This document shows positions 47,319-64,000 of a stretch of 64,000 bases of DNA, piece after piece. A model generated the notes under the pieces. That model did not search any database, had not been told where the DNA came from, and saw nothing but the letters and a program-made list of their open reading frames with translations. The DNA is from an uncultured Gemmatimonadales bacterium. GTDB lineage: Bacteria > Gemmatimonadota > Gemmatimonadetes > Gemmatimonadales > GWC2-71-9. The stretch is taken from contig CAVSQW010000005.1 in the NCBI GenBank assembly GCA_963730185.1, positions 32,001 through 96,000 of the forward strand, read 5' to 3'. The stretch's first letter is position 1, and each line of letters begins with the position of its first letter. The position numbers and the translations under genes were made by a program.

Positions 47319-47495
47319 CGCGCTCCCGCCCGTTCCTGCCGATTGCCGTTTGCCGTCTCCTTCCCTTCGACCCGCCGGGCCACTCGGGGCGGACCCGGCC
47401 GCCGCCCGACACCCCCGGGCACACCCGCTCGTAAGGCCAGCCCTGGCGCTCAGGCGCCGTCGCCTCAAACTTGGTGGACCTTCAACCCCGAATCC

Positions 47496-49145
47496 ATGCT
47501 CAAGCGCTCGATCGGCCTCATCTCCCTGGCCTTGCTCACCGGTGCGGGCCACCTCGCCGCCCAGCGGACCAGCCCCGACATCACCCCCGCCGACCTCCGG
47601 CTCCGGCTCTTCGCCCTGGCCGACGACTCGATGGGCGGACGGGCCACCGGTTCGCTCGGCAACTTCAAGGCGGCCGAGTGGGTGGCGTCGGAGTTCAAGC
47701 GCCTGGGACTCGAACCCGCCGGCGACGACGGCACCTACTTCCAGACCATCCCGTTCTTCCGGCTCAAGCCCGACCCGCGGGTCACCCTGGCGGTGAACGG
47801 CGCACCGCTCGCGCTTGGCGTCGACGTGCTACCGATCATCGCGCCGTCGGCGCCGAGGCCGATGGACGGTGCCCAGGCGATCTACGGCGGGCCGGTGGGC
47901 GACAGCACGAAGTGGATCTCGGCGGCCGAGGCCAAGAGCAAGATCGTGGTCTTCGCGAAGCCGGCGGTCCAGGGTCGCGGCTTCGGCGCGATCCTCGGCC
48001 AGCTCCGGCAGAGCCGGCGGTTCGCCGACGCCGCGCTGATCGCGATCGACGGGCTGGACGAGACGGCGCCCGAGCTCGTGGCGGCGCTGCTGGACGGCCG
48101 GGTGGTGACCGATACGACCCGAACGATGCCGGCGCCGCTCCTGGCCCTGGTCTCCGCCCGCGGCACCGAGTGGCTGATCGGCCGGCCGTTGGCGAGCGCC
48201 ACGCCTGGCACGCTGGGCAAGACGGTCCAGGGCGAAACCCGGCTCGGACTCTTTCCGCTCGACTACCCGGCCCGGAACGTGGTGGCCGTGCGTCGCGGCG
48301 CCGACCCGGCGCTCCGGAACACCTACGTCTCGCTCACCGGTCACAACGATCACGTCGGCTTCGACCACTCGCCGGTGGATCACGATTCACTCCGAGCCTT
48401 CGACCGGGTGATCCGCCCGATGGGCGCCGATTCGCCCAACCGCGAGCCCACGGCCGACGAGTGGAAGGAGGTTCATCGGATCCTCGACAGCCTCCGGGCC
48501 ATTCGGCCGCCGCGGCCCGACTCGATCCGGAACGGAGCCGACGACGACGGCACCGGCACGGTGGCGCTGCTCGAGATCGCCGAGAAGTTCGCGAGCCAGC
48601 CGGCGTTCCGGCGGTCGATTCTGTTCGTCTCCCATACGGCCGAGGAAGAGGGTCTGCTCGGCTCGGCGTGGTTCACCGATCACGCGACGGTGCCGGTGGA
48701 CTCGATCGTGAGCGAGCTGGACATGGACATGATCGGCCGGGGCGACCGGATCGACCTGCCCGAAGGCGGGCCGGGTTATCTGGAGCTGGTCGGCTCCCGG
48801 CGGCTCTCGAACGAGTACGGCGAGATCATCGACCGGGTCAACGCGCGACAGCCCGAGCCGTTCCAGTTCAACCTGACCTACGACGCCCCGGGTCACCCGC
48901 TCCAGTACTACTGTCGAGCCGACCACTACAGCTACGGGCGTTACGGCATTCCGGCGGTCGCTTTCTCACGGGGTGAGCATCTCGACTATCACCAGGTGAC
49001 CGACGAGCCGCAGTACATCGACTACGACGCCCTGTCACGGGTGGCGCACCTGGCCGCGGACGTGGCGGCCGAGGTGGCGAATCTGGACCACCGGCCGAAG
49101 CTGGACCGGCCGAAGGGCGATCCGCATGCCCGTTGCGTTCAATGA
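47496..49145 (+). CDS. Exported M28 family peptidase with PA-like insert
   Basis: Signal peptide; GHNDH, GADDDGTG, AEEEGL, DMIGR and YHQVTD motifs. Confidence 0.9.
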   Translation: MLKRSIGLISLALLTGAGHLAAQRTSPDITPADLRLRLFALADDSMGGRATGSLGNFKAAEWVASEFKRLGLEPAGDDGTYFQTIPFFRLKPDPRVTLAVNGAPLALGVDVLPIIAPSAPRPMDGAQAIYGGPVGDSTKWISAAEAKSKIVVFAKPAVQGRGFGAILGQLRQSRRFADAALIAIDGLDETAPELVAALLDGRVVTDTTRTMPAPLLALVSARGTEWLIGRPLASATPGTLGKTVQGETRLGLFPLDYPARNVVAVRRGADPALRNTYVSLTGHNDHVGFDHSPVDHDSLRAFDRVIRPMGADSPNREPTADEWKEVHRILDSLRAIRPPRPDSIRNGADDDGTGTVALLEIAEKFASQPAFRRSILFVSHTAEEEGLLGSAWFTDHATVPVDSIVSELDMDMIGRGDRIDLPEGGPGYLELVGSRRLSNEYGEIIDRVNARQPEPFQFNLTYDAPGHPLQYYCRADHYSYGRYGIPAVAFSRGEHLDYHQVTDEPQYIDYDALSRVAHLAADVAAEVANLDHRPKLDRPKGDPHARCVQ

Positions 49146-49148
49146 TGG

Positions 49149-49204
49149 TAGGGAGTAGGGAGGGATTGGGGAGTAGGGAGGCAGTCGGGACTAGGGAGTA
49201 GGGG
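49149..49204 (+). repeat. TAGGGAG heptamer repeat / G-quadruplex-forming tract
   Basis: TAGGGAG at 49149, 49156, 49174 and 49192, plus TAGGGG at 49199. Confidence 0.6.
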
Positions 49205-50159
49205 TGGCCGGTTGGAAGACGGCGATGGCGTTCGGGTAGTCCACCGTCACCTTGAAGTAGTGGAGGGCGCTTCCGCCCAGAGCGCCTTCCACTTGCCGGT
49301 CCATGAAGCGGGTCATGAATTGGTGGAAGTTCCGATCCGGCCGGCGAGTGAACCACACCGGGCCGACGGTGGAGCCGGCCACCGTGACCTCGGGTACCTC
49401 GATCAGCGGCTCGCCGGTCCCCTTCTCGCCCTTCTCGACCACTCGCCAATCGGGATGTCGGGAGCGCCACCGCTCGAAGGTCGTCGTGGTGATGAAGCTC
49501 GTGGCGCGGACCGAGTCGGTTGCGCCCATGGTAGCCATGGCATCGGCGGTGAGCGGCGAGGTGGCGCCGGTATCGAGGAGCAGATCCAGGGCCTGGCCGT
49601 CGATGGTGGCCTGAATCCGAGGGAAGTTGAGGGCGCGGCCGCCGGCGCTGTCGGTCTGAAAGCCGAGCGCGACCCGGTGCTCGGGCGCGACTGCGGGAAC
49701 GTCGCCATTCGCCCGGAGCCAGAGCGTCCGCCCGGGGTAGTCGAAGGTCCACGTCCGCCCACCGAACCACTCCTGCCCCAACATCCCGTCGGCCTCGAAC
49801 ATGTCGATCCCGCGACCCGGCGGCGGGGCAAGGACCATCACCTTCCCGCCCCGCGAGGGCGGCAGGGGAATCGAGGCGTCGGCGGCGAACGGCGGAAAGG
49901 TCGCGAGCCTGACGGTGTCGGCCCCCTCCACTTGGGTCGTGACCTCGATCCCCAGTCGAGTCGCCGCGTCCTGCAGCAGAAACAGCCCCCCGCCCGAATC
50001 GGTATAGAGCGTGATCCGCCGACCCGCGGTCGTGACGGGCTCGACCCAGAAACGGTCGCCGTGGTAGCCGGTCGGGAGGGCGAGGGGGTGGCCGGGGGTC
50101 TGGGCGGCGAGCGGTGCCGCGACGGCGAGAAGCGAGACGAGGAACAAGAGGCGGGGCAT
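49191..50159 (-). CDS. Exported retropepsin-like aspartyl protease (two-lobe)
   Basis: Signal peptide; YTDSGGG...DGMLG and LLDTGAT...GALG motif pairs. Confidence 0.75.
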   Translation of the reverse strand: MPRLLFLVSLLAVAAPLAAQTPGHPLALPTGYHGDRFWVEPVTTAGRRITLYTDSGGGLFLLQDAATRLGIEVTTQVEGADTVRLATFPPFAADASIPLPPSRGGKVMVLAPPPGRGIDMFEADGMLGQEWFGGRTWTFDYPGRTLWLRANGDVPAVAPEHRVALGFQTDSAGGRALNFPRIQATIDGQALDLLLDTGATSPLTADAMATMGATDSVRATSFITTTTFERWRSRHPDWRVVEKGEKGTGEPLIEVPEVTVAGSTVGPVWFTRRPDRNFHQFMTRFMDRQVEGALGGSALHYFKVTVDYPNAIAVFQPATPTP

Positions 50160-50269
50160 GCAAGTCGATGGTTGGGGGTCAAAGCAACCAGGTGATCGAG
50201 TGCGCTACGAACGTAGCCGCCCGGCCACCTGGTTACCTAGTCACCTACCACTTCCGCTCCGGCTGCTTC

Positions 50270-52852
<2,583 letters not shown>

Positions 52853-52956
52853 GATAGCGAAACCTCCGAGGTTGTCGCGAAACAAGCAGGAGCGAACCGC
52901 CCGTCGGGCGCTCCGCCGATTGACAAGAAGCTGACGAGGATGTCCAACAGTACCGC

Positions 52957-52978
52957 CCCTTCCCCTCGCCGGGAAGGG
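52957..52978 (-). terminator. Short hairpin after the TonB-receptor-like gene
   Basis: CCCTTCCC-N6-GGGAAGGG, 8 nt past the stop; no strong U-tract. Confidence 0.35.
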
Positions 52979-52985
52979 ACTCGGT

Positions 52986-55900
52986 TCACGGGCGCCGACG
53001 CTGGCCGCGCCCGAACCCCGCGTTCTTGACCCGGTCCGGCACGCCGTTCCACTGCTCCGGCGTGAGCGCCTTCTGACAGGCCGCGAGGGCGTCGCGGTGC
53101 GCGGTTCGGAGCTCCTGGAACACCGGCTGGATCGAGAGCATCAGCCGCTGCGGATCGGGATTCGAGCCGGCCTTCTGGATCTGCGCCTCCGCTTTCTCCC
53201 CCAGGGCCTTGATCTTCGCCGCGAACGAATCCGACACCGCCTGGAGTGCCGTCACCTCAGCGTCGGTCAGGTTGAGGGCGATCCGGATCTTGACGATCTC
53301 CGCCGCGGGATCCGGGAACGCCGTCTCGAGCCGGGTCAGGAAGTCGGCCGGCGTCGCCATCCCCGCGGCCCCGCCCGCGCCACCCCGACCACCGGGACCG
53401 CCAGCTCCGCCGGGCCGCCCACCGAACCCGCCCCCGAAGCCACCCCGGCCGCCACCACGGAGGCCGCGGAGGAAGTCGCGTTGCCGATCCGGGCCGATGG
53501 TGTAGCGGACCTGAATGCCGATTTGAAACGGATTCCGGATGGCGTTCACGCTCGCCACGGTGGCGCCGAAGCGCTCGTTCACGACGTACGTGAACCGTTG
53601 GGTCGTAGGATCGAACCCGTCGACCAGGAGCAGCGTCCCGTCGGGCCGGGACTGCTGTCCCCAGCCCTGGAGATTGCCCGCACCGTGGAAGAGCTCGTCC
53701 AGGCCCGCCAGCAGGTTACTGGTGACGACCGAGATGTTGAGCCGCTGGTTGAGCCCCAGAAAGGTCGGGCGGTAGTTCATCTGGAGATCGAGCGACGGCT
53801 GCCAGGGTCCGACGCAGCTGTTCCGGGCCGCGATCTGGCCGGTCTGTCGCTCGAGGCAGGCCCGCACCCCGGCACCGGTGCCGGCCAGGAGCCGGGCCAT
53901 CCCATCGGCCACCGCGGTGTCGGCGGCGTTCGGGCCGAAGATGAAGGCCCGGTCGTTGCGCGATCCGTCGCCGTTGATGTCGGCGCTCACCACCGGTGTG
54001 TACGGCGCGCCGCTGGTGAGCCGGGCGATGGTGGTGAGCTCGAGATTGTTGGTGACCGGATAGGTCGCCGTGGCAAGGAACGAATGGCGCCGCTCGAAGT
54101 CGCTCCGAGCCCACTCCCGGGCGTTGGGGTCGCCCCCGGTCGTGGCGGAGCTGAAGCCGAGCCCCCCGCCGGCGCCCGCGAACGAGGACTGGTCGCGTGA
54201 GCGGCTCAAGGTGTACGACACGCTGTAGATCAATGCCTTCCGGGTCGTCCCTTGAGCGCTCAGGGTCAGCTGGGTGGACTCGGACTGGAGATCGGAGTCC
54301 ACCCGGAGCACCTGGCCGTACGCCGGGTCGCGCCGCGAAGCGAAGAGGCCCGTCGCGCCGGTGCGAGGGTCGATCGTCGGGGCCGCCGCGTAGACCGGAC
54401 GACCGCCTTCGCTCGTCAGGCTGAACTGCGGGCTGCCGAGGTTGAGGTCGCTGAAGCCGGTCTGGTCCAGGCCGCGGGCGTAGCTCACCTCGAGGCCGAG
54501 GGCGTGGAGACCCATGCGGCGGTTGATCCCAAGGGAGCCCCGCCAGGCCCGGGGCGCGCTGAAGTCCTGGTTGAAGGCGGTGACGTTGGGCTGCCGGGTG
54601 GGAACCGCGCTCAGGGCACCGCCGAGGCACCCGACCGGCACGGACCCGGGATCGGTCCGATATCCCGACCAATCCGGGACCGGCGCGTCGGCGCCGATGC
54701 ACACCAGCTGCGACTCGGTGTTTCCTTGACCAGGCGCCGCGATCGCGGCGCTCACCAGCTGGTTGGGCATCCGGCTCAGGAACTCGCCGATCCCGCCCCG
54801 GAGGTACCACTTGGGCGGCGCCTCCGGGTTGAAGCCCCCGACCACCCAGGTGAACCCGACCCGCGGGCTCAGGTGCAGCTCGCTCGGCAAGCGGTCGGTC
54901 CGGAGGCCGAAGCTGGTGGCCACGTCCTGGTTCAGCGCCGGCGCGCCGCCGAAGCCCAGCGCCTCGCCGCGGAGCCCGAGCGAGAGCTGCACGGCCGAGC
55001 TGACCCGCCACTGGTCGGTCAGGTAGATCGAGGCGTCGTGCGAGGTGCTGCTCCGGACCACCGGTGCCACGGTTCGGGTGAAGCTGGCCGGACGGCCGGA
55101 CTCGAAGTCGGCCAGCGAATTGAAGATGAAGGTCCCGTACCGGTTGCTGGTGCCGTCGCTGGTGGTGCTGCCAACGTTCAGGAAGGTGCCGAGCTTGAAG
55201 CGATGCCCCCCAGATCGGGGGAGCCAGGAAAGCTCGTTGGTGCCCTCGAACGACGTGCTCGAGCCGCTCCGCGGGAGCCCCGGGTTACCGCCGAAGATGA
55301 AGGTGCTCACCCCGGACGAGCCGTCGTCCAGGAGCGACGCGACCTGCACCCGGCCGGCCGGGAAGGCGTCGGTGGCCGACGCCTGGTTGGAGGAGCCGGA
55401 GAGGTAGGCCCGGAACTCGTTGATGACGCTGGTGCCGAATCGCGAGTTCAGGGTCAGCATCCCGCCCCCTCCGCTCGACGACTGGGTCCCACCGGTGCTG
55501 GGCACCGAGAGGGGCGAGATCCGGGTCGGATCCTGCTTGTTGGACCGAACGTCGCCCCGGAAGGTCAGGGTGTGGGCATCCGAGATCGAATAGTCGATCC
55601 GGACGATACCCGACAGCGCCGTGGTCCGGCGGTCGCTCTCGTTGGCCAGATCGACCGGCAGGCCGTCGTTCCCGAGGATCGACAGGAATCGAGCGACTGA
55701 GTCGGGGCTGGCGCCGAGGCGCTCCAGCGACGAAGACGGCGCGTTCAGCAGCGATTGGAGATTGTCACCCCGAAACCGTCCCTGTCCCGATGCGAAGACC
55801 CAGAGCTTGTTCGTGACGATCGGCCCGCCCAGCCCGAACGACAGCTGGTGCTGGGTGAAGCTGTTGTTGAAACTGCCGGACTGGTCGTTCTGGAGCACCA

Positions 55901-56678
55901 GGCTCCGGTCGCGAAGCGAGTAGTTGAGGCTGCCCTGGGTGACGTTGCTACCCGTCCTGGTGGTGGACGACACCAGACCGCCGCTGAACTGGCCCCGCGA
56001 GGCGTCGTAGGTGTTGGTAATGACCCGGGTAACCCGAACCGCGTCCTGCGGGACGGTACCGGCGCCGAAGCTGAGTCCGTCGAGGGTGATGTTGTTGTCG
56101 CCCGGCCGCTGGCCGGCGACGGAAAAGCTGTTGGCGGTGGAATCGGTGCCCGGGATGGCCACCACGCCGGGCGCCAGGGTGGCCAGCAGGGCCAGGTCGC
56201 CGGCGTCGATCGGGAGCCGGGCCAACTGATCGGGCGTCATCGCCTTCTCGGTCGAGCCCGCCGTGGGCGGGTCGAAGCTTCCCGGCGGACCCCGCCGCCC
56301 ACCCCGGACCACGATCTCGTCCAGCTGGGTAGCGCTCCCGCCCGACATCTTGACGTTGAAGACGAGCCGGTCCTCGTCGACCTGACGAGCAATGACCGTT
56401 TGGAGGGGCGCCAGGCCGATCGCCCGGATGGTCATCCGGTACTGGCCGCCGCCGTCGGGGAAGAGAATCGTGTAGCGGCCGCGGGAATCGGTTCGCGCGG
56501 ACCGGACGATCTGGGTCTCCAGCGACATGGCCTCGACCACGGCCTCCGCCACCGGTTGGCCCTGATCGTTGGTGACGACGCCGGTGATGACGTCGGTGGA
56601 TGACACCTGAGCGGTCGCCGAACGCGCCGCGCCGGCCAGCAGGACGCCCACCAGGAGCCCGAACCCCAACCGCGACAC
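52986..56678 (-). CDS. Oar-like TonB-dependent receptor-type beta-barrel with a C-terminal Gly-rich linker and helical LTxxQ domain
   Basis: Signal peptide, CarboxypepD_reg domain, NNITLDG, YDASRGQFSGG, GGPIV and SPRVGF motifs; about 170 extra residues after the last strand. Confidence 0.82.
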   Translation of the reverse strand: MSRLGFGLLVGVLLAGAARSATAQVSSTDVITGVVTNDQGQPVAEAVVEAMSLETQIVRSARTDSRGRYTILFPDGGGQYRMTIRAIGLAPLQTVIARQVDEDRLVFNVKMSGGSATQLDEIVVRGGRRGPPGSFDPPTAGSTEKAMTPDQLARLPIDAGDLALLATLAPGVVAIPGTDSTANSFSVAGQRPGDNNITLDGLSFGAGTVPQDAVRVTRVITNTYDASRGQFSGGLVSSTTRTGSNVTQGSLNYSLRDRSLVLQNDQSGSFNNSFTQHQLSFGLGGPIVTNKLWVFASGQGRFRGDNLQSLLNAPSSSLERLGASPDSVARFLSILGNDGLPVDLANESDRRTTALSGIVRIDYSISDAHTLTFRGDVRSNKQDPTRISPLSVPSTGGTQSSSGGGGMLTLNSRFGTSVINEFRAYLSGSSNQASATDAFPAGRVQVASLLDDGSSGVSTFIFGGNPGLPRSGSSTSFEGTNELSWLPRSGGHRFKLGTFLNVGSTTSDGTSNRYGTFIFNSLADFESGRPASFTRTVAPVVRSSTSHDASIYLTDQWRVSSAVQLSLGLRGEALGFGGAPALNQDVATSFGLRTDRLPSELHLSPRVGFTWVVGGFNPEAPPKWYLRGGIGEFLSRMPNQLVSAAIAAPGQGNTESQLVCIGADAPVPDWSGYRTDPGSVPVGCLGGALSAVPTRQPNVTAFNQDFSAPRAWRGSLGINRRMGLHALGLEVSYARGLDQTGFSDLNLGSPQFSLTSEGGRPVYAAAPTIDPRTGATGLFASRRDPAYGQVLRVDSDLQSESTQLTLSAQGTTRKALIYSVSYTLSRSRDQSSFAGAGGGLGFSSATTGGDPNAREWARSDFERRHSFLATATYPVTNNLELTTIARLTSGAPYTPVVSADINGDGSRNDRAFIFGPNAADTAVADGMARLLAGTGAGVRACLERQTGQIAARNSCVGPWQPSLDLQMNYRPTFLGLNQRLNISVVTSNLLAGLDELFHGAGNLQGWGQQSRPDGTLLLVDGFDPTTQRFTYVVNERFGATVASVNAIRNPFQIGIQVRYTIGPDRQRDFLRGLRGGGRGGFGGGFGGRPGGAGGPGGRGGAGGAAGMATPADFLTRLETAFPDPAAEIVKIRIALNLTDAEVTALQAVSDSFAAKIKALGEKAEAQIQKAGSNPDPQRLMLSIQPVFQELRTAHRDALAACQKALTPEQWNGVPDRVKNAGFGRGQRRRP

Positions 56679-56709
56679 AGCGCCCGCCTCGTGTGGTTAC
56701 GAGGTGGAA

Positions 56710-56735
56710 TACGCAGAGGTCCGGAGAAACGTTAA
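56710..56735 (-). promoter_or_regulatory. Putative ECF-sigma promoter (TTAAC-N17-CGTA)
   Basis: About 30 nt upstream of the receptor GTG start. Confidence 0.5.
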
Positions 56736-56750
56736 GGTATCGGTGACGAG

Positions 56751-57377
56751 CTAGGGCCGGCGGAACCGGCGCCGTGCGGTTTCCGCATCCTTCCACACCA
56801 CGCAGCCCTCGAGGTGGTCGTTGACCAGACCCATCGCCTGCATGAAGGCGTAGACGGTCGTCGGCCCGACGAAGGTCCAGCCCCGCCGCTTCAGGTCCTT
56901 GGACAGGGCCACGCTGACCGGGGTGGTGGCCATCTTCGTCAGCGCGGCGTGGGTCAGCTTGCGGGGTCGGTCGGCCGGGGCCGGCTCGAACTGCCAGAAG
57001 TAGCGAGCCAGGGAGTCGAACTCGTCCCGGAGCGTCAGAGCCCGGCGGGCGTTGTTGATGGTCGACTCGATCTTGCCACGGTGCCGCACGATCCCGGCGT
57101 CCCGAAGAAGCCGGGTCACGTCGCGGCTCCCGAACCGAGCGACCTTCTCGAAGTCGAAGGCGCGGAACGCCCGCCGGAAGTTCTCCCGCTTCCGGAGAAT
57201 GGTGAGCCAGCTCAGCCCCGCCTGAAAGCCTTCGAGACAGATCTTCTCGAACAGACGGTGATCGTCGGCCACCGGCCGACCCCACTCGGTGTCGTGGTAG
57301 TGGGCGTAGTCCGGCGTGCTGGCGCCCCACCAGCAGCGGGCGCGGCCGTCCTCGCCGACCGCGAGACCCTTGGCCAC
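56751..57377 (-). CDS. tag: DNA-3-methyladenine glycosylase I
   Basis: RCWW, YHDTEWG, LEGFQAGLSW and FVGPTTVYAFMQAMGLVNDHLEGC motifs. Confidence 0.95.
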   Translation of the reverse strand: MAKGLAVGEDGRARCWWGASTPDYAHYHDTEWGRPVADDHRLFEKICLEGFQAGLSWLTILRKRENFRRAFRAFDFEKVARFGSRDVTRLLRDAGIVRHRGKIESTINNARRALTLRDEFDSLARYFWQFEPAPADRPRKLTHAALTKMATTPVSVALSKDLKRRGWTFVGPTTVYAFMQAMGLVNDHLEGCVVWKDAETARRRFRRP

Positions 57378-57380
57378 GGC

Positions 57381-57623
57381 CTACTCCTTCTTCTTGAGCC
57401 GGTCCTTATTGGCGGCGATGAAGTCGCGGATCTCGTCGGCCATCTCCAGAAGCTTGGTCCACTGCTCCTGATAGAGGGTGATCGGAAAGCGGCCCAGGCC
57501 GTAGACCGAGACGCCGCCCTTCTCGCTCACCTTGAGCGAGGCGCCCTTGGAGGCGGTCTTCTTGAGCGCGGCGTTCTCCTGCCGCAGTCGGTCCAGCTCG
57601 GCCTTCAGATCTTCATCGGACAT
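57381..57623 (-). CDS. 80-aa hypothetical protein, possibly PC4-like ssDNA-binding fold
   Basis: GGAG RBS; MSDEDLKAELDRLRQEN coiled coil, then KVSEKGGVSVYGLGRFPITLYQEQWTKLL; ends 3 nt before tag. Confidence 0.75.
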   Translation of the reverse strand: MSDEDLKAELDRLRQENAALKKTASKGASLKVSEKGGVSVYGLGRFPITLYQEQWTKLLEMADEIRDFIAANKDRLKKKE

Positions 57624-57737
57624 CGGAGGCTCCCGTTTCGCTTCTCGAGGGACCGCAAGATAGCGGGTTCCCGGGGTGTCGGGGCTCAACCCGGGGTGAT
57701 ACCTTGCCGACGACCTTGCCAACCCAGAGACCACGCC

Positions 57738-58526
57738 ATGCGTCGTCCCATGTTCGGGGCTGCCGCGCTGCTCCTCGCTCTCGTGAGCCAAGCTCGGGCC
57801 CAGCGACTCGACACCGGGTTTCTCGACCGGACGGTGACCGCCGGCGGTCAGACCTTTCGATACCAGATCTACGTTCCGTCGAACTACCGCGCTGAGGTGG
57901 CCTGGCCGGTCATCCTCTTCCTGCACGGTGCCGGCGAGCGCGGCGCTCACGGCCTGCTCCAGACCACCGTCGGTCTCGGCAACGCGATCCGGCGGGACCC
58001 GACCCGCTATCCGGCGCTGGTGGTCTTTCCTCAGGTTCCCGAGGACTCGCAATGGCCGGGGCCGGCCGCCGACGCCGCGTTCGCCGCGTTGCAGGAAACG
58101 ATGGCCACCTACCACACCGACCCCGATCGAGTCTACCTGACCGGCCTCTCGTTGGGCGGGCACGGGACCTGGTACCTGGCCTACCGCCATCCCGCCGTCT
58201 TCGCCGCGGTAGCACCGATCTGCGGCTGGGTCGGCGAGCACCCCATGTTCACCGGGTCGGTGCCGGTCGTCCCGCCCGACAGCGGGCCGGCGCTCCCCGC
58301 GCTGGCCCGTCAGCTCGCTCGGGTACCGATCTGGGTCTTTCACGGTGAGATGGACCCGCTGGTCCCAGTGAGCGGCGCCCGCGATCCGGTCGAGGCGCTG
58401 AAAGCCATCCACGCCGACGTGCGCTATACCGAGTACCTGGGAATGGGGCACAACGTCTGGGACGCGACCTACGCCTCCGACGAGTTCGCCCACTGGCTGT
58501 TCGCCCAGCGGCGACGCCACCGCTGA
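57738..58526 (+). CDS. Exported alpha/beta hydrolase (predicted esterase/peptidase)
   Basis: Signal peptide; FLHGAGE, TGLSLGG, FHGEMD and GHNVW motifs. Confidence 0.88.
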   Translation: MRRPMFGAAALLLALVSQARAQRLDTGFLDRTVTAGGQTFRYQIYVPSNYRAEVAWPVILFLHGAGERGAHGLLQTTVGLGNAIRRDPTRYPALVVFPQVPEDSQWPGPAADAAFAALQETMATYHTDPDRVYLTGLSLGGHGTWYLAYRHPAVFAAVAPICGWVGEHPMFTGSVPVVPPDSGPALPALARQLARVPIWVFHGEMDPLVPVSGARDPVEALKAIHADVRYTEYLGMGHNVWDATYASDEFAHWLFAQRRRHR

Positions 58527-58538
58527 CCGGCGAGCGCC

Positions 58539-60518
58539 TCAGGGCACCCGTTCGAGCACCACCCGGATGAGGTCCAGCGCGGCCCGGCGGGTGCCGGTCC
58601 GCGCGGGCGAGATCTGGAAGTGGACCACCTGACTGCCGGCGTCGAGATCGAGCTCCCCTAACGGGGTAAGCGCTCCCGCGCGGTGAGTCGGCGCCGACGT
58701 GTCGAACGGCGTTCCGTAGGGCTGGTCGTCGACCAGAAGCTGCACCACTCCTTGGTCCGGGCCCACCACCGGCAGGATCGACACCCGATACCGCCCCGCC
58801 AACGGCACCGGCACCGCCAGGCTCAAGACGTGGCGCCCGAAGTCCGGCGTGCTGTCGCCCACGAAGGAGAGGTAGCGCCCGATCCCGGGCTCCGGCCGCT
58901 TCGTCAGGGTGGCGTACCGGGTAGAGAAAAACGTCACCGGCGACGACCAACCCGGGTTCAGGGTGATCCGTGACGGAACGCTAGCCCGGCGGGTGCGCTC
59001 GGTGTATTCGGTCGAATGCCACTCGGGCGGCGCCGCGGAATAGAAGTAGGTCACCGCCGCGTAGTCGGCCGAGACCGCGTTGGTGACGTCCTCGCCGTGC
59101 TCGATGGTGAAGTCGATCGTTCCGTCGTAGGCATAGGCGTCGCCCAGGAAGAAGCGATACCCGCCGGTCCGGGCCAGCGGGTTGGAGTAGCCGAGCGAGC
59201 CCGACATGGGAAACGAACGGCGCGCGTCCCAGCGGCCGGGAACGTCGTACCAGCCGCCGTTGAACGAGTCCTCTGAGCCGGTGCCGGCAACCACCGTGTC
59301 GCCGTCGATCACCACCCGGTCGTCGCCCTCGAAGAACGGGGTGCCGTCGGTGGCCAGCCCCTGCGCCTGCAGCACCACCCCGACGACGTGGCCGCGCCCA
59401 CCGGTCCGGAGAAAGGTGAACGGCTGCCCGGGCGTGGTCGGGTTCTCGCGGCGCCAGACTGCGTAGAACCGGCCCTCGTCCGGCCGGCGGGCCTCGGGAC
59501 TCAGGAAGATCTCGGCGTGGATGGCGCGTGGCGCAGTGCCCGGCGCCTGCTCCATCTCGATCCGGGCGGAGCGATCGAAGGGCATCGGGAACCAGAGGTA
59601 GGCCGTGTCACGGGTGGCCCCGGCAAGAAGACCCGCCATGGCCGGCCCGCCCCACGCACCCCCGAAGAGGTCGGACACGGGCACCTCCACGGCCGGGTCG
59701 GTCGCCCCATCCCAGTAGATCCGGAGTAGCGCGGCGCGGCCTTCGGCCAACAGCTCACCCGCCGGCGCAAGACGAAGCCCGACCAGCCGGCCGCCGACCC
59801 TGGTCTCGAACACCGTGGTGGGGGCACCCGGCTGGAGGGTCCGGTCGACCGCCCGCCGATCGATCGGCGCACCGGGAGGCGAGCCGAACCGAGCCAGATC
59901 ACCGCCCGACGCGCGGAGCACCGCCTCGGCGCCTTCCCGCCACGGTGACGGGCGACTCGGATCGAACGTCGCGATCCCGGCATCGGCACCGTAGCGGGCG
60001 TAGTTGATCTGGTAGAACTGCACCTTCGGTCCGCGGACGATCACCCGGAGCGACCGGGCGTAGGGAAGCGTGACGTAGCTGTAGTACCCGCCCGCCCCGA
60101 ACCCCACCAGCGGCCGATCGAAGGGATCGTGGCCACCGAGAAAGAGCGCCCGCATCGGGAGCCGGAGCCGGGGCGTCGTCTCGCCGTCGAAGTAGAACTC
60201 GACCGGATCGCCGGTCGGTGTGGGCGTCCAGATCCGGTAGACCACGCCCGGTCCCTTCAGGTCGGCGATGACCAGTCCATCGCCTTCCTTCCGGAGGAAG
60301 GAATGGGCCCCGCTGAAGCCGTCGTCGTTCTTGCCCGAGGGGTCGGCGCTCGTGACCGCCCCGAGCGCGATCGAGTGACGGAGGCGGGGCAGCTCGTCGA
60401 GCCGCGCCAGGGCGCGGAGGCCGACCCCGGGCAGGCCGTCCGCGGGCGGGCGCTGGGCGGGCGCGACCGTCGCGGTGAGGGCGACGGCCAGCGGTCCGAG
60501 AAACGGTCGGAGGTTCAC
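58539..60518 (-). CDS. Exported GH172 / DUF2961 glycoside hydrolase with C-terminal extension
   Basis: GPGVVYRIW, IYWDG, PMPF, FFEGDD, GTGSEDSFNGGWY and IEHG motifs. Confidence 0.85.
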   Translation of the reverse strand: MNLRPFLGPLAVALTATVAPAQRPPADGLPGVGLRALARLDELPRLRHSIALGAVTSADPSGKNDDGFSGAHSFLRKEGDGLVIADLKGPGVVYRIWTPTPTGDPVEFYFDGETTPRLRLPMRALFLGGHDPFDRPLVGFGAGGYYSYVTLPYARSLRVIVRGPKVQFYQINYARYGADAGIATFDPSRPSPWREGAEAVLRASGGDLARFGSPPGAPIDRRAVDRTLQPGAPTTVFETRVGGRLVGLRLAPAGELLAEGRAALLRIYWDGATDPAVEVPVSDLFGGAWGGPAMAGLLAGATRDTAYLWFPMPFDRSARIEMEQAPGTAPRAIHAEIFLSPEARRPDEGRFYAVWRRENPTTPGQPFTFLRTGGRGHVVGVVLQAQGLATDGTPFFEGDDRVVIDGDTVVAGTGSEDSFNGGWYDVPGRWDARRSFPMSGSLGYSNPLARTGGYRFFLGDAYAYDGTIDFTIEHGEDVTNAVSADYAAVTYFYSAAPPEWHSTEYTERTRRASVPSRITLNPGWSSPVTFFSTRYATLTKRPEPGIGRYLSFVGDSTPDFGRHVLSLAVPVPLAGRYRVSILPVVGPDQGVVQLLVDDQPYGTPFDTSAPTHRAGALTPLGELDLDAGSQVVHFQISPARTGTRRAALDLIRVVLERVP

Positions 60519-60678
60519 GGCACCATCGGGGCTCGGGTCGGGCTCAAGTTACTCTCGGTCCGGATCGTCTCAAGACCCGGGCGGCGCTGGCTTTACACTG
60601 TTCAACCCGGACGATAGCTTCGCTCCGGCCTCGTGATACCGCGGTCATCGTCCCATCTTCGGCCCTACAGGATCGCCC

Positions 60679-61848
60679 ATGCATCGCCTCGCTCGGCCAC
60701 TCCTGGTCGCTCTCGCGGGCTGCGCGCTGGCCGCGCCGGCCGGCGCCCAGTCGCCTCGCCATGAGCTCGACAACCTGCCTTTCCTGCGCAGCTACGTCTC
60801 CGCCCGGGTGTCGAGCGCCGACCCGACCGGCGGCAACGACGACGGCAACGGCCGACACCCCATCGAGCCCGGCGAGACCCGGACCCTCGCCGCGCTCGAT
60901 GGCCCTGGGATCATCACCCACATGTGGTTCACGATCGCCACCCGCGACCGGTGGCATCTCAAGAACCTGGTGCTTCGGATCTACTGGGACGCTGAAACCA
61001 CCCCCAGTGTGGAGACCCCAATCGGCGACTTCTTCGGCCTCGGCCTCGGCAAGTACTTCCTCTACGAATCCGGTCCCTTGTCGGTCGGGTCGCAAAAGGC
61101 GCTGAACAGCTACTTCCCGATGCCCTTCCGGCGGTCGGCCCGGATCACGGTCACCAACGACGGCGACCTCGCCACCTCGTCTTTCTACTACAACATCGAC
61201 TACGAGAAGCACCAGTCGCTGCCCGACGACATGGGCTACTTCCACGCCCAGTACCGCCAGGCCGCGCCGTTCCATGGGTGGACCGACGATTGGACCCGGA
61301 ACGGCGACACGCTGGTGGACCGGCGACCCAATCGCACCGGCGAAGGCAACTATCTGATCCTCGAGGCGCGGGGCCACGGTCATTTCGTGGGGGTGACGGA
61401 AAGCATCCTCCAGAATCAGGGCGACTGGTGGGGTGAGGGCGACGACATGTTCGTGATCGACGGTGCCCCGCTCCCCCAGATCAACGGTACCGGCAGCGAG
61501 GACTACTACCTGGGCGCCTGGTGCTACGGGGGGTGCGGGATCGACCCGTTCGGTAGCAAGCGGCCCACCTTCGCCTACCAGCGCTACGGCAATCCGATGA
61601 ACGGCGGCGACGATCGCGGGGCCGGCTGGATGGTGTATCGCTTCCACACCGACTCGCCGGTCGTGTTTCAGAAGTCGCTCCGGTTCTCGATCGAGGCCGG
61701 GCACGCCAACCATCGCTCCGACAACTACTACACCGTGGCGTACTGGTACCAGGACGAGCCGCACCTGGCGTTTCCGACCCTGCCCCCGGCCGCCGATCGG
61801 ATCCCGCGGGTCATGAACACCGGCGGACCCACGATGGGAAGGCCCTGA
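60679..61848 (+). CDS. Exported GH172 / DUF2961 glycoside hydrolase
   Basis: GPGIITHMW, PIGDFFG, NSYFPMPF, WWGEGDD, GTGSEDYY, YRFH and VAYWYQ motifs. Confidence 0.9.
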   Translation: MHRLARPLLVALAGCALAAPAGAQSPRHELDNLPFLRSYVSARVSSADPTGGNDDGNGRHPIEPGETRTLAALDGPGIITHMWFTIATRDRWHLKNLVLRIYWDAETTPSVETPIGDFFGLGLGKYFLYESGPLSVGSQKALNSYFPMPFRRSARITVTNDGDLATSSFYYNIDYEKHQSLPDDMGYFHAQYRQAAPFHGWTDDWTRNGDTLVDRRPNRTGEGNYLILEARGHGHFVGVTESILQNQGDWWGEGDDMFVIDGAPLPQINGTGSEDYYLGAWCYGGCGIDPFGSKRPTFAYQRYGNPMNGGDDRGAGWMVYRFHTDSPVVFQKSLRFSIEAGHANHRSDNYYTVAYWYQDEPHLAFPTLPPAADRIPRVMNTGGPTMGRP

Positions 61849-61849
61849 C

Positions 61850-63525
61850 ATGGCGGACGTGACCCGCGACCTCATCCTCGTCGCGAGCGGCGACTCGCGA
61901 CTCTCCGCCAACCAGCGTCTGCTGGCCGGCTCAGGCCGGGCTCGAGGCGACGATCGGGCGGACGTTCGAGGCGCTGGGCCGGCGGGTGGTGCGAGGTCAT
62001 CCGGTCGACCCGACGCTCGGCCACGGCTTCATCGACGGTCAGGCCCGAGGGCATCGAGGTGTTCCGGAGGATCGACCCCGACGCGCCGCTGATCGTCGCC
62101 GAGGCCGTCTGGCAGTACACCAGCCACGTGCTGGCTGGCCTGACCCGGCACCGGGGGCCGATCCTGACGCTCGCCAACTGGAGCGGGCAGTGGCCCGGGC
62201 TGGTCGGGCTCCTCAATCTGAACGGGTCGCTCACCAAGGCCGGCGTTCCGTACAGCACCATCTGGAGCGAGGACTTCACCGACGACTTCGCCCGCGAAGT
62301 CCATCGCCGAGTGGCTGGCGACCGGCGCGATCGAGCACGACCTTCCCACGCCCGCCCGCTCGAGGACGACGAGCTTCGGCGGCGAGTTCGCCGCCGACGC
62401 CGGGCCGGCGACGCGCTCGGACGCGAGCTCGCAAGCGCGAGCAGGCCCTCCTCGGCGTGTTCGATGAGGGGTGCATGGGGATGTTCAACGCGATCATCCC
62501 CGATCACCTGCTGCACCCGCTCGGGCTGTTCAAGGAGCGGCTGAGCCAGAGCGCGCTCTACGCCGCGATGCTGGCGGTCCCGGACGCGACCGCGCGGCGC
62601 CCACTACGACTGGCTGCGCGCGCGGGGGATGCGTTTCGCGCTGGGCGCGGACGAGGCCACCGAACTGACCGAGGCGCAGGTGCTCGAAGGGCTCCGGATG
62701 TACGACGCGGCCGTCGCGGCTGGCGCACCAGCTTCGGGTGTGCGGCCATCGGGATCCAGTATCAGCAGGGGCTCAAGGACACCTGCGTCGCGTCCGACCT
62801 GGCCGAGGGGCTGCTCAACAACCCCGACCGGCCGCCGGTGCTCGGTGCCGACGACGGCGCCGGCTCTTCGACGGACGGGCGGTGCCGCACTTCAATGAGG
62901 TGGACGAGTGCGCCGGCGTCGACGCGCTCGATGACCAACCGGGTCTGGATCGCGACTCGGCATCGATCCGTCGACCACGCTGCACGACGTGCGGTGGGGC
63001 GCGCCGGTGGCGGAGCGAGGCGTGGACGAGTTCGTCTGGGTGTTCGAGATCTCCGGCGCCGCGCCGGCCTCGCACTTCATCGGCGGCTACGCCGGCGCCA
63101 CGGGTGAACGCCAGCCGCCGATGTACTTCCCGCGCGGCGGCTCGACCCTCAAGGGCGTGAGCCGTCCGGGCGAGATCGTCTGGAGCCGGATCTACGTGCC
63201 GGACGATGCGCTGCACATGGACATCGGGCGCGGGCGGCGTGGTCCGGCTCTCCGACGAGGAGACCGAGCGCCGCTGGCAGGCGACGACGCCGCAGTGGCC
63301 GATCATGCACGCCGTCCTCTACGGGGTGAGTCGCGACCAGTTGATGGCGGCCCACCAGGCCAACCACATCCAGGTCGCGTACGCGCCTGACGCCGCCGAG
63401 CGGCCCGCCGGGCGCTGGCGCGGAAGGCGGCCATGGCGCAGCGCGCTGCGGCCTCGAGGTGCGGCTCGCCGGCGACCTCGACGACACGCTGGACTCCCAC
63501 CAGACCGGCGCCGCTCCGTCAGTGA
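61850..63525 (+). CDS. L-fucose/D-arabinose isomerase-like protein, multiple frameshifts (probably sequence errors); end approximate
   Basis: Fragments across frames: [83 protein letters not shown]. Confidence 0.7.
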
Positions 63526-64000
63526 GCGGTCCCGAGCCGCTCGTCACGCGCGCAGGGCCTCGGGATGTCGTTTCCCGGGGTCCGCGCGCTGGCAGCCGTC
63601 GACTTCGACGTCCGGCCCGGTGAAGTGCACGCCCTGGTCGGGCGAGAACGGCGCCGGCAAGTCCACGCTCGGCCGGATGCTGGGCGGCGAGATGGTACCG
63701 GACGAGGGTCGCCTCATCATCGCCGGCACGCCCGCGCTCGCTCCGCTCGCCCCGCGAGGGCCTGGCCGCCGGCGTGGCGATGATCCCGCAGGAGTTCCAG
63801 CTGGTCGTCACCCTTTCGGTGGCCGAGAACATCATGCTCGGCCGCGAGCCCCGGCTCGGCTCCGGGCTGGTGAACCGAATGGCGTTGCGCAAGGCGGCCC
63901 GCGATGCCCTCGATGCGGTCGGGGCCGGCCACGTCTCGCCGACCGCGCTCGTCGACGAGCTCACCCCCGGCGACCGGCAGCTGGTGGCGATCGCCCGGGC
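63522..64000 (+). CDS. Sugar ABC transporter ATP-binding protein (RbsA/MglA-like), partial and frameshifted
   Basis: SFPGVRAL...GEVHALVG(E)NGAGKSTL Walker A after removing one [17 protein letters not shown]. Confidence 0.85.

Follow-up and report, generated by a model that had tools for sequence, protein, structure and literature searches.

Two D-arabinan-degrading bacteria provide the closest described systems for the locus reported here. When supplied with D-arabinan, Dysgonomonas gadei makes the L-fucose isomerase FucI (54 peptides) and a ribulokinase (29 peptides), each with none in the control, its FucI being a canonical protein of 591 amino acids, according to the accessible part of PMC10115798; for Microbacterium arabinogalactanolyticum, the available portion of Shimokawa 2023 includes a scheme (Fig. 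9b) that draws the conversion of D-arabinose to D-ribulose-5-phosphate (PMC10509167). The sugar concerned, D-arabinofuranose (D-Araf), is likewise found on the pili of Pseudomonas and on the Stenotrophomonas O-antigen, as stated in the accessible sections of PMC10941961. Here we describe a six-gene cluster that starts in a 64,000-nucleotide stretch from an uncultured Gemmatimonadales bacterium (the window, G000:C5:32001-96000, from the 5.27-Mb assembly G000, which comprises 17 contigs and is 81.8% complete), whose closest homologues carry the names Gemmatimonadales or Gemmatimonadota. Judging from its genes and their conserved residues, this cluster probably releases D-arabinose from α-D-arabinofuranosides, imports it, and routes it to D-ribulose and then to D-ribulose-5-phosphate.

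The cluster runs 4.6 kb past the end of the window and is made up as follows, with the basis of each call in brackets:

58539..60518, minus strand: GH172 of the Dg71 (DgGH172b) type, 659 amino acids (PF11175, PDB matches, residues, AlphaFold2 model)
60519..60678, no strand: divergent intergenic region of 160 nucleotides, presumed to hold both promoters (sequence)
60679..61848, plus strand: GH172 with a single DUF2961 domain, like Dg79 and BACUNI_00161, 389 amino acids (PF11175, PDB matches, residues)
61850..63525, plus strand: divergent FucI-fold aldose-ketose isomerase, about 549 amino acids in congeners (14 frameshifts in the assembly; orthologues in G016 and G005)
63522..64000, plus strand: 5' part of a fused monosaccharide ABC ATPase and permease, the gene ending at G000:C5:98097 (8 frameshifts)
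G000:C5 about 98093-98982, outside the window, plus strand: sugar-binding protein, probably a lipoprotein (PF13407 on the G005 orthologue; 2 frameshifts)
G000:C5:98992-100584, outside the window, plus strand: AraB-type ribulokinase, intact, 530 amino acids (NF003154)

As an earlier, sequence-only reading of the window had described, the short GH172 gene lies one nucleotide from the isomerase gene (TGA at 61846-61848, ATG at 61850), and the latter abuts the ABC gene, its stop sharing GTGA at 63522-63525 with the ABC start. All six genes are intact and in the same order in the congeners G005 and G016, and G010 and G017 show the same order as far as the contig end, which falls inside the cluster. 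The divergent GH172 pair is present in four of the 21 congeners searched, and the genes flanking the cluster vary from genome to genome, which sets the limits of the six-gene unit. The intergenic region between the GH172 genes measures 116-140 nucleotides in three congeners and aligns with weak conservation only; it held no sigma-70 match and no clear operator, and a promoter and terminator scan gave nothing exceeding shuffled sequences.

Both GH172 proteins match PF11175/DUF2961 above its cut-off of 27 bits (185.8 bits, E 1e-54, for the 659-residue protein; 257.8 bits, E 1e-76, for the 389-residue protein), and the PDB matches of both are the four solved GH172 sequences, which the short enzyme matches with E-values of 9e-74 (4KQ7), 2e-64 (8AH3), 2e-63 (7V1V) and 3e-35 (8IC8). 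The glutamates of the EGDD and GTGSED motifs, which the sequence-only reading had picked out, are retained in both (E397/E416 and E253/E274), 19-21 residues apart and aligned to E270/E291 of αFFase1, the difructose dianhydride I (DFA I) synthase/hydrolase of Bifidobacterium dentium. That reading had also called the enzymes secreted; signal peptides, judged by eye from a positive N-region, a hydrophobic core and a small-residue site before Gln, were seen in both, so that secretion is putative. In the long enzyme, T390, the acid/base E397, the nucleophile E416 and Y424 correspond to T380, E387, E406 and Y414 of Dg71 at a constant offset of 10, with E397, E416 and Y424 invariant across 111 homologues. 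Its AlphaFold2 model (predicted local distance difference test, pLDDT, 92.9) has strand blocks at about 51-175, 220-494 and 517-657, giving an extra jelly-roll, the DUF2961 double jelly-roll and a C-terminal β-sheet domain, and the top seven Foldseek matches are all GH172 chains; this is the Dg71-type architecture as judged against the published Dg71 text, no Dg71 chain being among the PDB matches. As for the short enzyme, it is of the single-domain form and has W250 and C282 in addition to its catalytic pair.

The position of αFFase1 Gly299 is occupied by C282 in the short enzyme and Y424 in the long one, as it is by Cys in Dg79 and BACUNI_00161 and by Tyr414 in Dg71, and the αFFase1 stretches with the +1 residues E85 and K147, which DFA requires, either do not align with the short enzyme or fall in gaps. 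In the accessible parts of the literature, Gly299 of αFFase1 admits fructose and Asn253 of ExoMA1 blocks it (Shimokawa 2023, PMC10509167), the Cys of BACUNI_00161 clashes with fructofuranose (Fruf) and E85/K147 are required for inulobiose (Kashima 2021, PMC8605356), three D. gadei GH172 enzymes are inactive on DFA I (PMC10115798; 10.64898/2026.08.13.744632), and αFFase1 works together with GH32 (PMC10941961). The active-site residues suggest that fructosides are not the substrates here, and by this sequence proxy both enzymes are predicted to be α-D-arabinofuranosidases rather than fructofuranosidases.

A third GH172 gene lies elsewhere in G000 (G000:C6:391012-393084; L029:8012-10084, minus strand), encoding a protein fused to C-terminal HEAT repeats, with a 5' end that looks frameshifted. 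The isomerase locus of G327 (L033) includes the same GH172-HEAT form, and that of G135 (L032) encodes a protein whose active-site motif is similar.

The isomerase is 82% identical to the intact G016 protein when read across its breaks, and is intact in three congeners. The sequence-only reading's fucose/D-arabinose isomerase turned out not to be an ordinary L-fucose isomerase: the G005 orthologue (C17:9774-11420) scores below the Pfam FucI cut-offs (PF02952, 26.9 against 29.3; PF07881, 25.9 against 28), one window fragment barely reaching the latter at 28.1, and it has no NCBIfam family match and no PDB match by phmmer. The FucI N2 domain (PF07882) gave no match in the isomerase or in any of the 401 genomes of the phylum, and a profile of 57 isomerase sequences reaches only the D-arabinose isomerase 3A9R, at E 3e-4. 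Searching with the AlphaFold2 model of the G005 protein (pLDDT 95.8), Foldseek placed FucI at ranks 1-8 (E 5e-23, 15-16% identity), followed by AraA as the second-best fold match (E 7e-18), and the ESM Atlas returned only 'fucose isomerase' clusters. Equivalents of the FucI metal ligands E337/D361/H528 and of its sugar contacts, as given in the accessible part of PMC6894278, are present in 45-49 of the 57 alignment rows, with the metal-ligand equivalents E345, D374 and H500 kept in 49, 49 and 47; the R/W/Q/Y/N sugar contacts have their counterparts, and in the window the metal-ligand equivalents lie at 62897, 62986 and 63365. These correspondences come from a hidden Markov model alignment to 3A9R for His/Asn, Gln, Tyr and Met and from motifs, not superposition, for Glu, Asp, Arg and the N-terminal Trp; the equivalent of FucI Trp496, where the window reads PQWPIMH at about 63290, was left out of the active-site count. 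By its modelled fold and its Glu/Asp(Glu)/His metal ligands, the protein appears to belong to the FucI/AraA superfamily, and its sequence marks it as a distant uncharacterised family with no solved member, not as a canonical FucI. The literature covered, which leaves most subscription journals outside, held no paper on this isomerase family or on GH172 in Gemmatimonadota.

The downstream ribulokinase that the sequence-only reading had proposed looking for is present: by the curated model NF003154 (492.7 bits against a cut-off of 428), the last gene is assigned to the AraB-type ribulokinases, whereas TIGR01234 (307 against 583) stays below its cut-off and the fuculokinase model gives 43 bits against 470.9. 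AraB kinases accept D-ribulose. The importer resembles XylG, AraG and RbsA, yet falls under every NCBIfam cut-off; its G005 orthologue (857 amino acids) carries two PF00005 domains and one PF02653 domain. This ATPase-permease fusion is a single open reading frame (ORF) in 14 loci of a Gemmatimonadota/Acidobacteriota clade (for example L020:7204-9774), and the two parts are separate in the more distant loci L028, L039 and L043.

Together, these assignments would define a four-step route. The Dg79-type trimeric enzyme and the Dg71-type single-chain enzyme, with differing linkage preferences, would remove terminal α-D-Araf from small glycosides or oligomers in the periplasm, as their putative signal peptides and active-site residues suggest. 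Free D-arabinose would then be taken up by the binding protein and the fused ATPase-permease, and the isomerase, whose fold and ligands are known from model and alignment, would convert it into D-ribulose by the metal/ene-diol mechanism of FucI. Finally, the ribulokinase, which is established as to family, would yield D-ribulose-5-phosphate for the pentose-phosphate pathway, with no 4-epimerase needed. The genome contains rpe and rpiB, together with a frame-split tkt, and AraA was found over its cut-off in none of the five genomes searched. Of the sequence-only reading's proposals, the use of D-arabinofuranosides is thus supported by the ribulokinase, by the GH172 residues and by the lack of GH32, which was detected in none of the same five genomes.

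The distribution of the genes across the phylum also speaks for this route. The isomerase was found in 23 of 401 genomes and GH172 in 43, with GH172 present in 22 of the 23 isomerase-positive genomes against 21 of the 378 isomerase-negative ones (kin are not independent here), and within about 10 kb of the isomerase in 14 of the 23. Beyond the phylum, where the context was drawn from the best 80 isomerase loci in GTDB (42 of them full-length), a tree of 94 isomerases placed the congeners in a clade with full support (Shimodaira-Hasegawa-like approximate likelihood ratio test, SH-aLRT, 100), in which GH172 or GH116 is present in 11 of 14 rows; explaining this label takes at least three changes across the starred branches of the tree, which was built by a quick method and rooted at its midpoint, with no donor claimed. 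The tree excludes L001, L024, L032 and L037, whose sequences are broken or partial. GH116 is encoded in 7 of 98 related loci, and the GH116 tested, from L034, is nearest to the exo-β-D-arabinofuranosidase ExoMA2 (E 4.5e-109, against 1e-7 for a β-glucosidase).

Several observations weigh against the proposed route. Only 10 of the best 80 isomerase loci contain GH172 or GH116 and only 13 a kinase match, most being without an informative neighbour. GH127, a β-L-arabinofuranosidase family, lies beside the isomerase in L047, L049 and L070, close Acidobacteriota loci among them, and in L048-L050 a GH172 with the fructose-permissive Gly stands near the same isomerase-kinase-ABC set; the Acidobacteriota loci L047-L050 may take different substrates. 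At the level of single proteins, αFFase1 and Dg79 score alike against the short GH172 (218 and 222 bits), and identity between the isomerase and FucI is only about 15%. The binding protein has its best PDB match in 2X7X (E 3e-71), which we take to be the fructose sensor BT1754, the PDB code being unconfirmed. Fruf and D-Araf have the same ring stereochemistry, so this match fits fructose and D-arabinose alike. BT1754, which has the same fold, binds monomeric fructose according to the accessible part of PMC3243724, and FucI-fold enzymes accept L-fucose, D-altrose and L-galactose as well, as stated in the available text of PMC6894278. Lastly, our view of the frameshifts, given below, rests on comparison with relatives and on genome patches, not on reads of the window's own strain.

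The sequence-only reading had the organism feeding on actinobacterial arabinan. As a primary consumer of actinobacterial (mycobacterial or corynebacterial) arabinogalactan (AG) or lipoarabinomannan (LAM), it would differ from the scavenger proposed here in the source of the sugar and in attacking the polymer, and we regard this as unlikely. The characterised α-D-Araf GH172 enzymes tested in the cited work do act on AG or LAM, the pairing of Dg71 and Dg79 types mirrors D. gadei PUL42 (a polysaccharide utilisation locus, PUL), and relatives add the ExoMA2-like GH116. However, the GH183 (DUF4185) endo-arabinanase that the sequence-only reading had also named was not found in G000, G005, G009 or G016, its model matching 19 of the 401 genomes, and among the 23 isomerase-positive genomes just 7 give a DUF4185 match, which is weak and partial. 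GH116 was likewise not found in G000, at 82% completeness (control, 3/14), and the congeneric loci held no TonB-dependent or oligosaccharide importer. With neither GH183 nor GH116 found, scavenging is favoured over depolymerisation, and the occurrence of D-Araf on pili and O-antigen offers other sources; the organism would scavenge D-Araf in an exo-only manner from any glycan of microbial origin, which may be actinobacterial walls or others.

A different picture is presented by family f10 of the phylum sample (G042-G069), in which GH172 occurs in 13 of 13 genomes with 2-5 matches each, an isomerase of 45% identity in 11 of 13 and a DUF4185-like match in 7 of 13, so that true degraders of arabinan are better sought in this lineage.

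It is quite improbable that the sugar handled by the isomerase and kinase is a different aldose (L-arabinose, L-fucose, L-galactose or D-altrose), with the GH172 enzymes as passengers or acting on another furanoside. The AraB type of the kinase, the rank of AraA in the fold search, the GH127 neighbours and a GH95 gene in 6 of the 80 loci would agree with this; on the other side, L-ribulose-5-phosphate requires AraD, which was over its cut-off in none of the five genomes searched, and fucose needs a fuculokinase and an aldolase, for which we found only the 43-bit FucK match and, with no class II aldolase at the locus, genome matches on C7 and C1. The retained R/W/Q/Y/N contacts also speak against it.

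Returning to D-arabinose, the isomerase family reaches well beyond Gemmatimonadota: all 8000 of the 8000 candidates were scored, and at least 599 GTDB stretches contain a member. It is possible, though we lean somewhat against it, that these 530-560-residue proteins form a third, unrecognised FucI/AraA branch, a dedicated D-arabinose isomerase across environmental phyla that provides a shared entry for sugar from two sorts of bacterial remains, D-Araf glycans and Kdo (3-deoxy-D-manno-octulosonic acid) split by an aldolase of the dihydrodipicolinate synthase (DHDPS) family. If so, the exo-only Gemmatimonadota loci would also point to a non-mycobacterial natural substrate of Dg71-type GH172 enzymes. 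A DHDPS-family protein is encoded in 15 of the best 80 loci, never in the same loci as GH172 or GH116, and a Kdo aldolase yields D-arabinose and pyruvate. Such neighbours include L095:7910-8839 and L119:9093-10001. Neither of the two DHDPS neighbours tested reaches the cut-off of any named NCBIfam family, the closest structure being 4XKY, labelled DHDPS, and the Kdo-aldolase reading is therefore unproven.

Side by side with these counts, the isomerase of Pedobacter, Hymenobacter and kin (L057, L058, L063, L077, L078, L092 and L095) adjoins a DHDPS-family aldolase and an SSF symporter, most of these loci also having an AraC regulator, GH95, GH2-malectin, DUF3826 and SusC/D; presumably they resemble a rhamnogalacturonan-II locus, in which D-arabinose would arise from the cleavage of Kdo. 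BNR/FG-GAP proteins occur in 14 of the best 80 loci, and FG-GAP and BNR_2 (sialidase-like) proteins are repeatedly encoded next to the isomerase in Verrucomicrobiota, Planctomycetota and Bacteroidota (L076, L086, L090, L093, L096, L099, L102, L110, L115, L119 and L121), where they are candidate Kdo hydrolases.

The three genes that follow the short GH172 are broken in the assembly. Frameshift-aware alignment to G016, used in place of a blastn indel count that was too noisy at 75-77% identity, places 14 frameshifts in the isomerase, 8 in the ABC gene and 2 in the binding-protein gene, and none in the short GH172 or the kinase. A truly decaying operon, with all three as pseudogenes whatever the substrate, is a very unlikely explanation: 24 frameshifts within about 4.6 kb of accessory genes and the patchy occurrence of the cluster could be read that way, but 22 of the 24 events scored as insertions (three +2 events could also be -1) and no stop substitution was seen. 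The ratio of nonsynonymous to synonymous change (dN/dS) is 0.13 for the isomerase, 0.21 for the ABC gene and 0.15 for the binding-protein gene, compared with 0.20 and 0.23 for the intact neighbours, and all nine mapped active-site equivalents of the isomerase are unchanged. Similar damage occurs elsewhere, as a genome-wide coding-frame scan found at least five switches, mostly insertions, in 23 of 1046 5-kb windows, and 15 such patches (70 of 94 candidate ORFs scanned) contain frame-split gltX, citrate synthase, transketolase and ptsI. The predominance of insertions, the lack of stop substitutions, the low dN/dS and the split housekeeping genes make long-read assembly errors the most likely cause, and the pseudogenisation that the sequence-only reading had named as one possible refutation is probably not real. 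Only two read runs shared as much as 0.07 of the words, and most contigs from them were less than 95% alike, hence from other strains; a few of these contigs, which speak for those strains alone, omit single letters near 62600, 62857, 63232 and 63399, where insertions were placed. Insertion patches in G000 are exemplified by C8:575-585 kb, C12:95-100 kb, C8:420-425 kb and C2:155-160 kb, and apparent pseudogenes in this assembly are to be distrusted.

Hardly credible, finally, is the alternative offered by the sequence-only reading, that the cluster handles α-D-fructofuranosides (difructose dianhydride I) and fructose: the near-equal αFFase1 score and the binding-protein match speak for it, but Cys and Tyr replace Gly299, the E85 and K147 regions are missing, the GH32 partner was not detected, the binding-protein match fits D-Araf too, and an aldose isomerase with a ribulokinase makes no sense for fructose.

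Outside the cluster, positions 47343-58526 of the window encode an M28 peptidase, an aspartyl-protease-like protein, a Met-zincin (DUF4953/5117), a 1230-residue outer-membrane barrel protein, a methyladenine glycosylase and a secreted-looking esterase, all ordinary and unlinked to the cluster. The esterase (57738-58526), the glycosylase and the barrel gene were considered as parts of it and rejected, not being conserved beside the cluster in congeners.

The D-arabinose route, if correct, gives a minority of Gemmatimonadota, those 23 of the 401 sampled genomes with the isomerase, a concrete carbon source in a sugar that comes mainly from other bacteria. It also nominates a very large unsolved isomerase family, of which intact congener proteins exist, as D-arabinose isomerases, and a Dg79/Dg71 pair without an endo-arabinanase is a probe for what Dg71-type GH172 enzymes cleave in nature.

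Among known proteins, αFFase1 (PMC8605356, accessible part) shares the GH172 fold and catalytic pair with both enzymes described here and its W267/W298 with the short one, and differs in Gly299, in its E85/K147 regions and in its GH32 partner. FucI (1FUI, 3A9R, 4C20 and 6K1F) and AraA share the fold, the E337/D361/H528 equivalents and the R/W/Q/Y/N contacts with our isomerase; canonical FucI, however, has about 590 residues and the N2 domain, and goes with a fuculokinase and an aldolase, whereas the isomerase here has about 549 residues, 15-16% identity and no N2 domain, and pairs with a ribulokinase. As far as the accessible parts of the sources describe it, D. gadei PUL42 (Al-Jourani 2023, PMC10115798; Ross 2026, 10.64898/2026.08.13.744632) has in common with our locus the Dg79-type and Dg71-type GH172 enzymes, an aldose isomerase and a ribulokinase (HMPREF9455_02482, adjoining the GH172 genes by locus number). 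PUL42 differs in encoding GH183 endo-arabinanases together with a third GH172, a putative GH116 and the 591-residue FucI, while our locus, without GH183 or GH116, has a monosaccharide ABC importer and the shorter isomerase, about 15% identical to FucI. The D-arabinan PUL of M. arabinogalactanolyticum, in the available text of Shimokawa 2023 (PMC10509167), likewise combines GH172, an ABC transporter and a putative isomerase and kinase; there, secreted GH183 enzymes cut the polymer, an SBP_bac_8 ABC system imports oligomers and GH172/GH116 are cytoplasmic, in contrast to the putative signal peptides and monosaccharide-type importer found here. By analogy, the Gemmatimonadales locus appears to be like the downstream half of these two arabinan loci rather than a polymer-degrading PUL: the D-arabinose route is already a published proposal for Microbacterium, the enzyme set is shared with D. 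gadei, and the locus described here is a variant.

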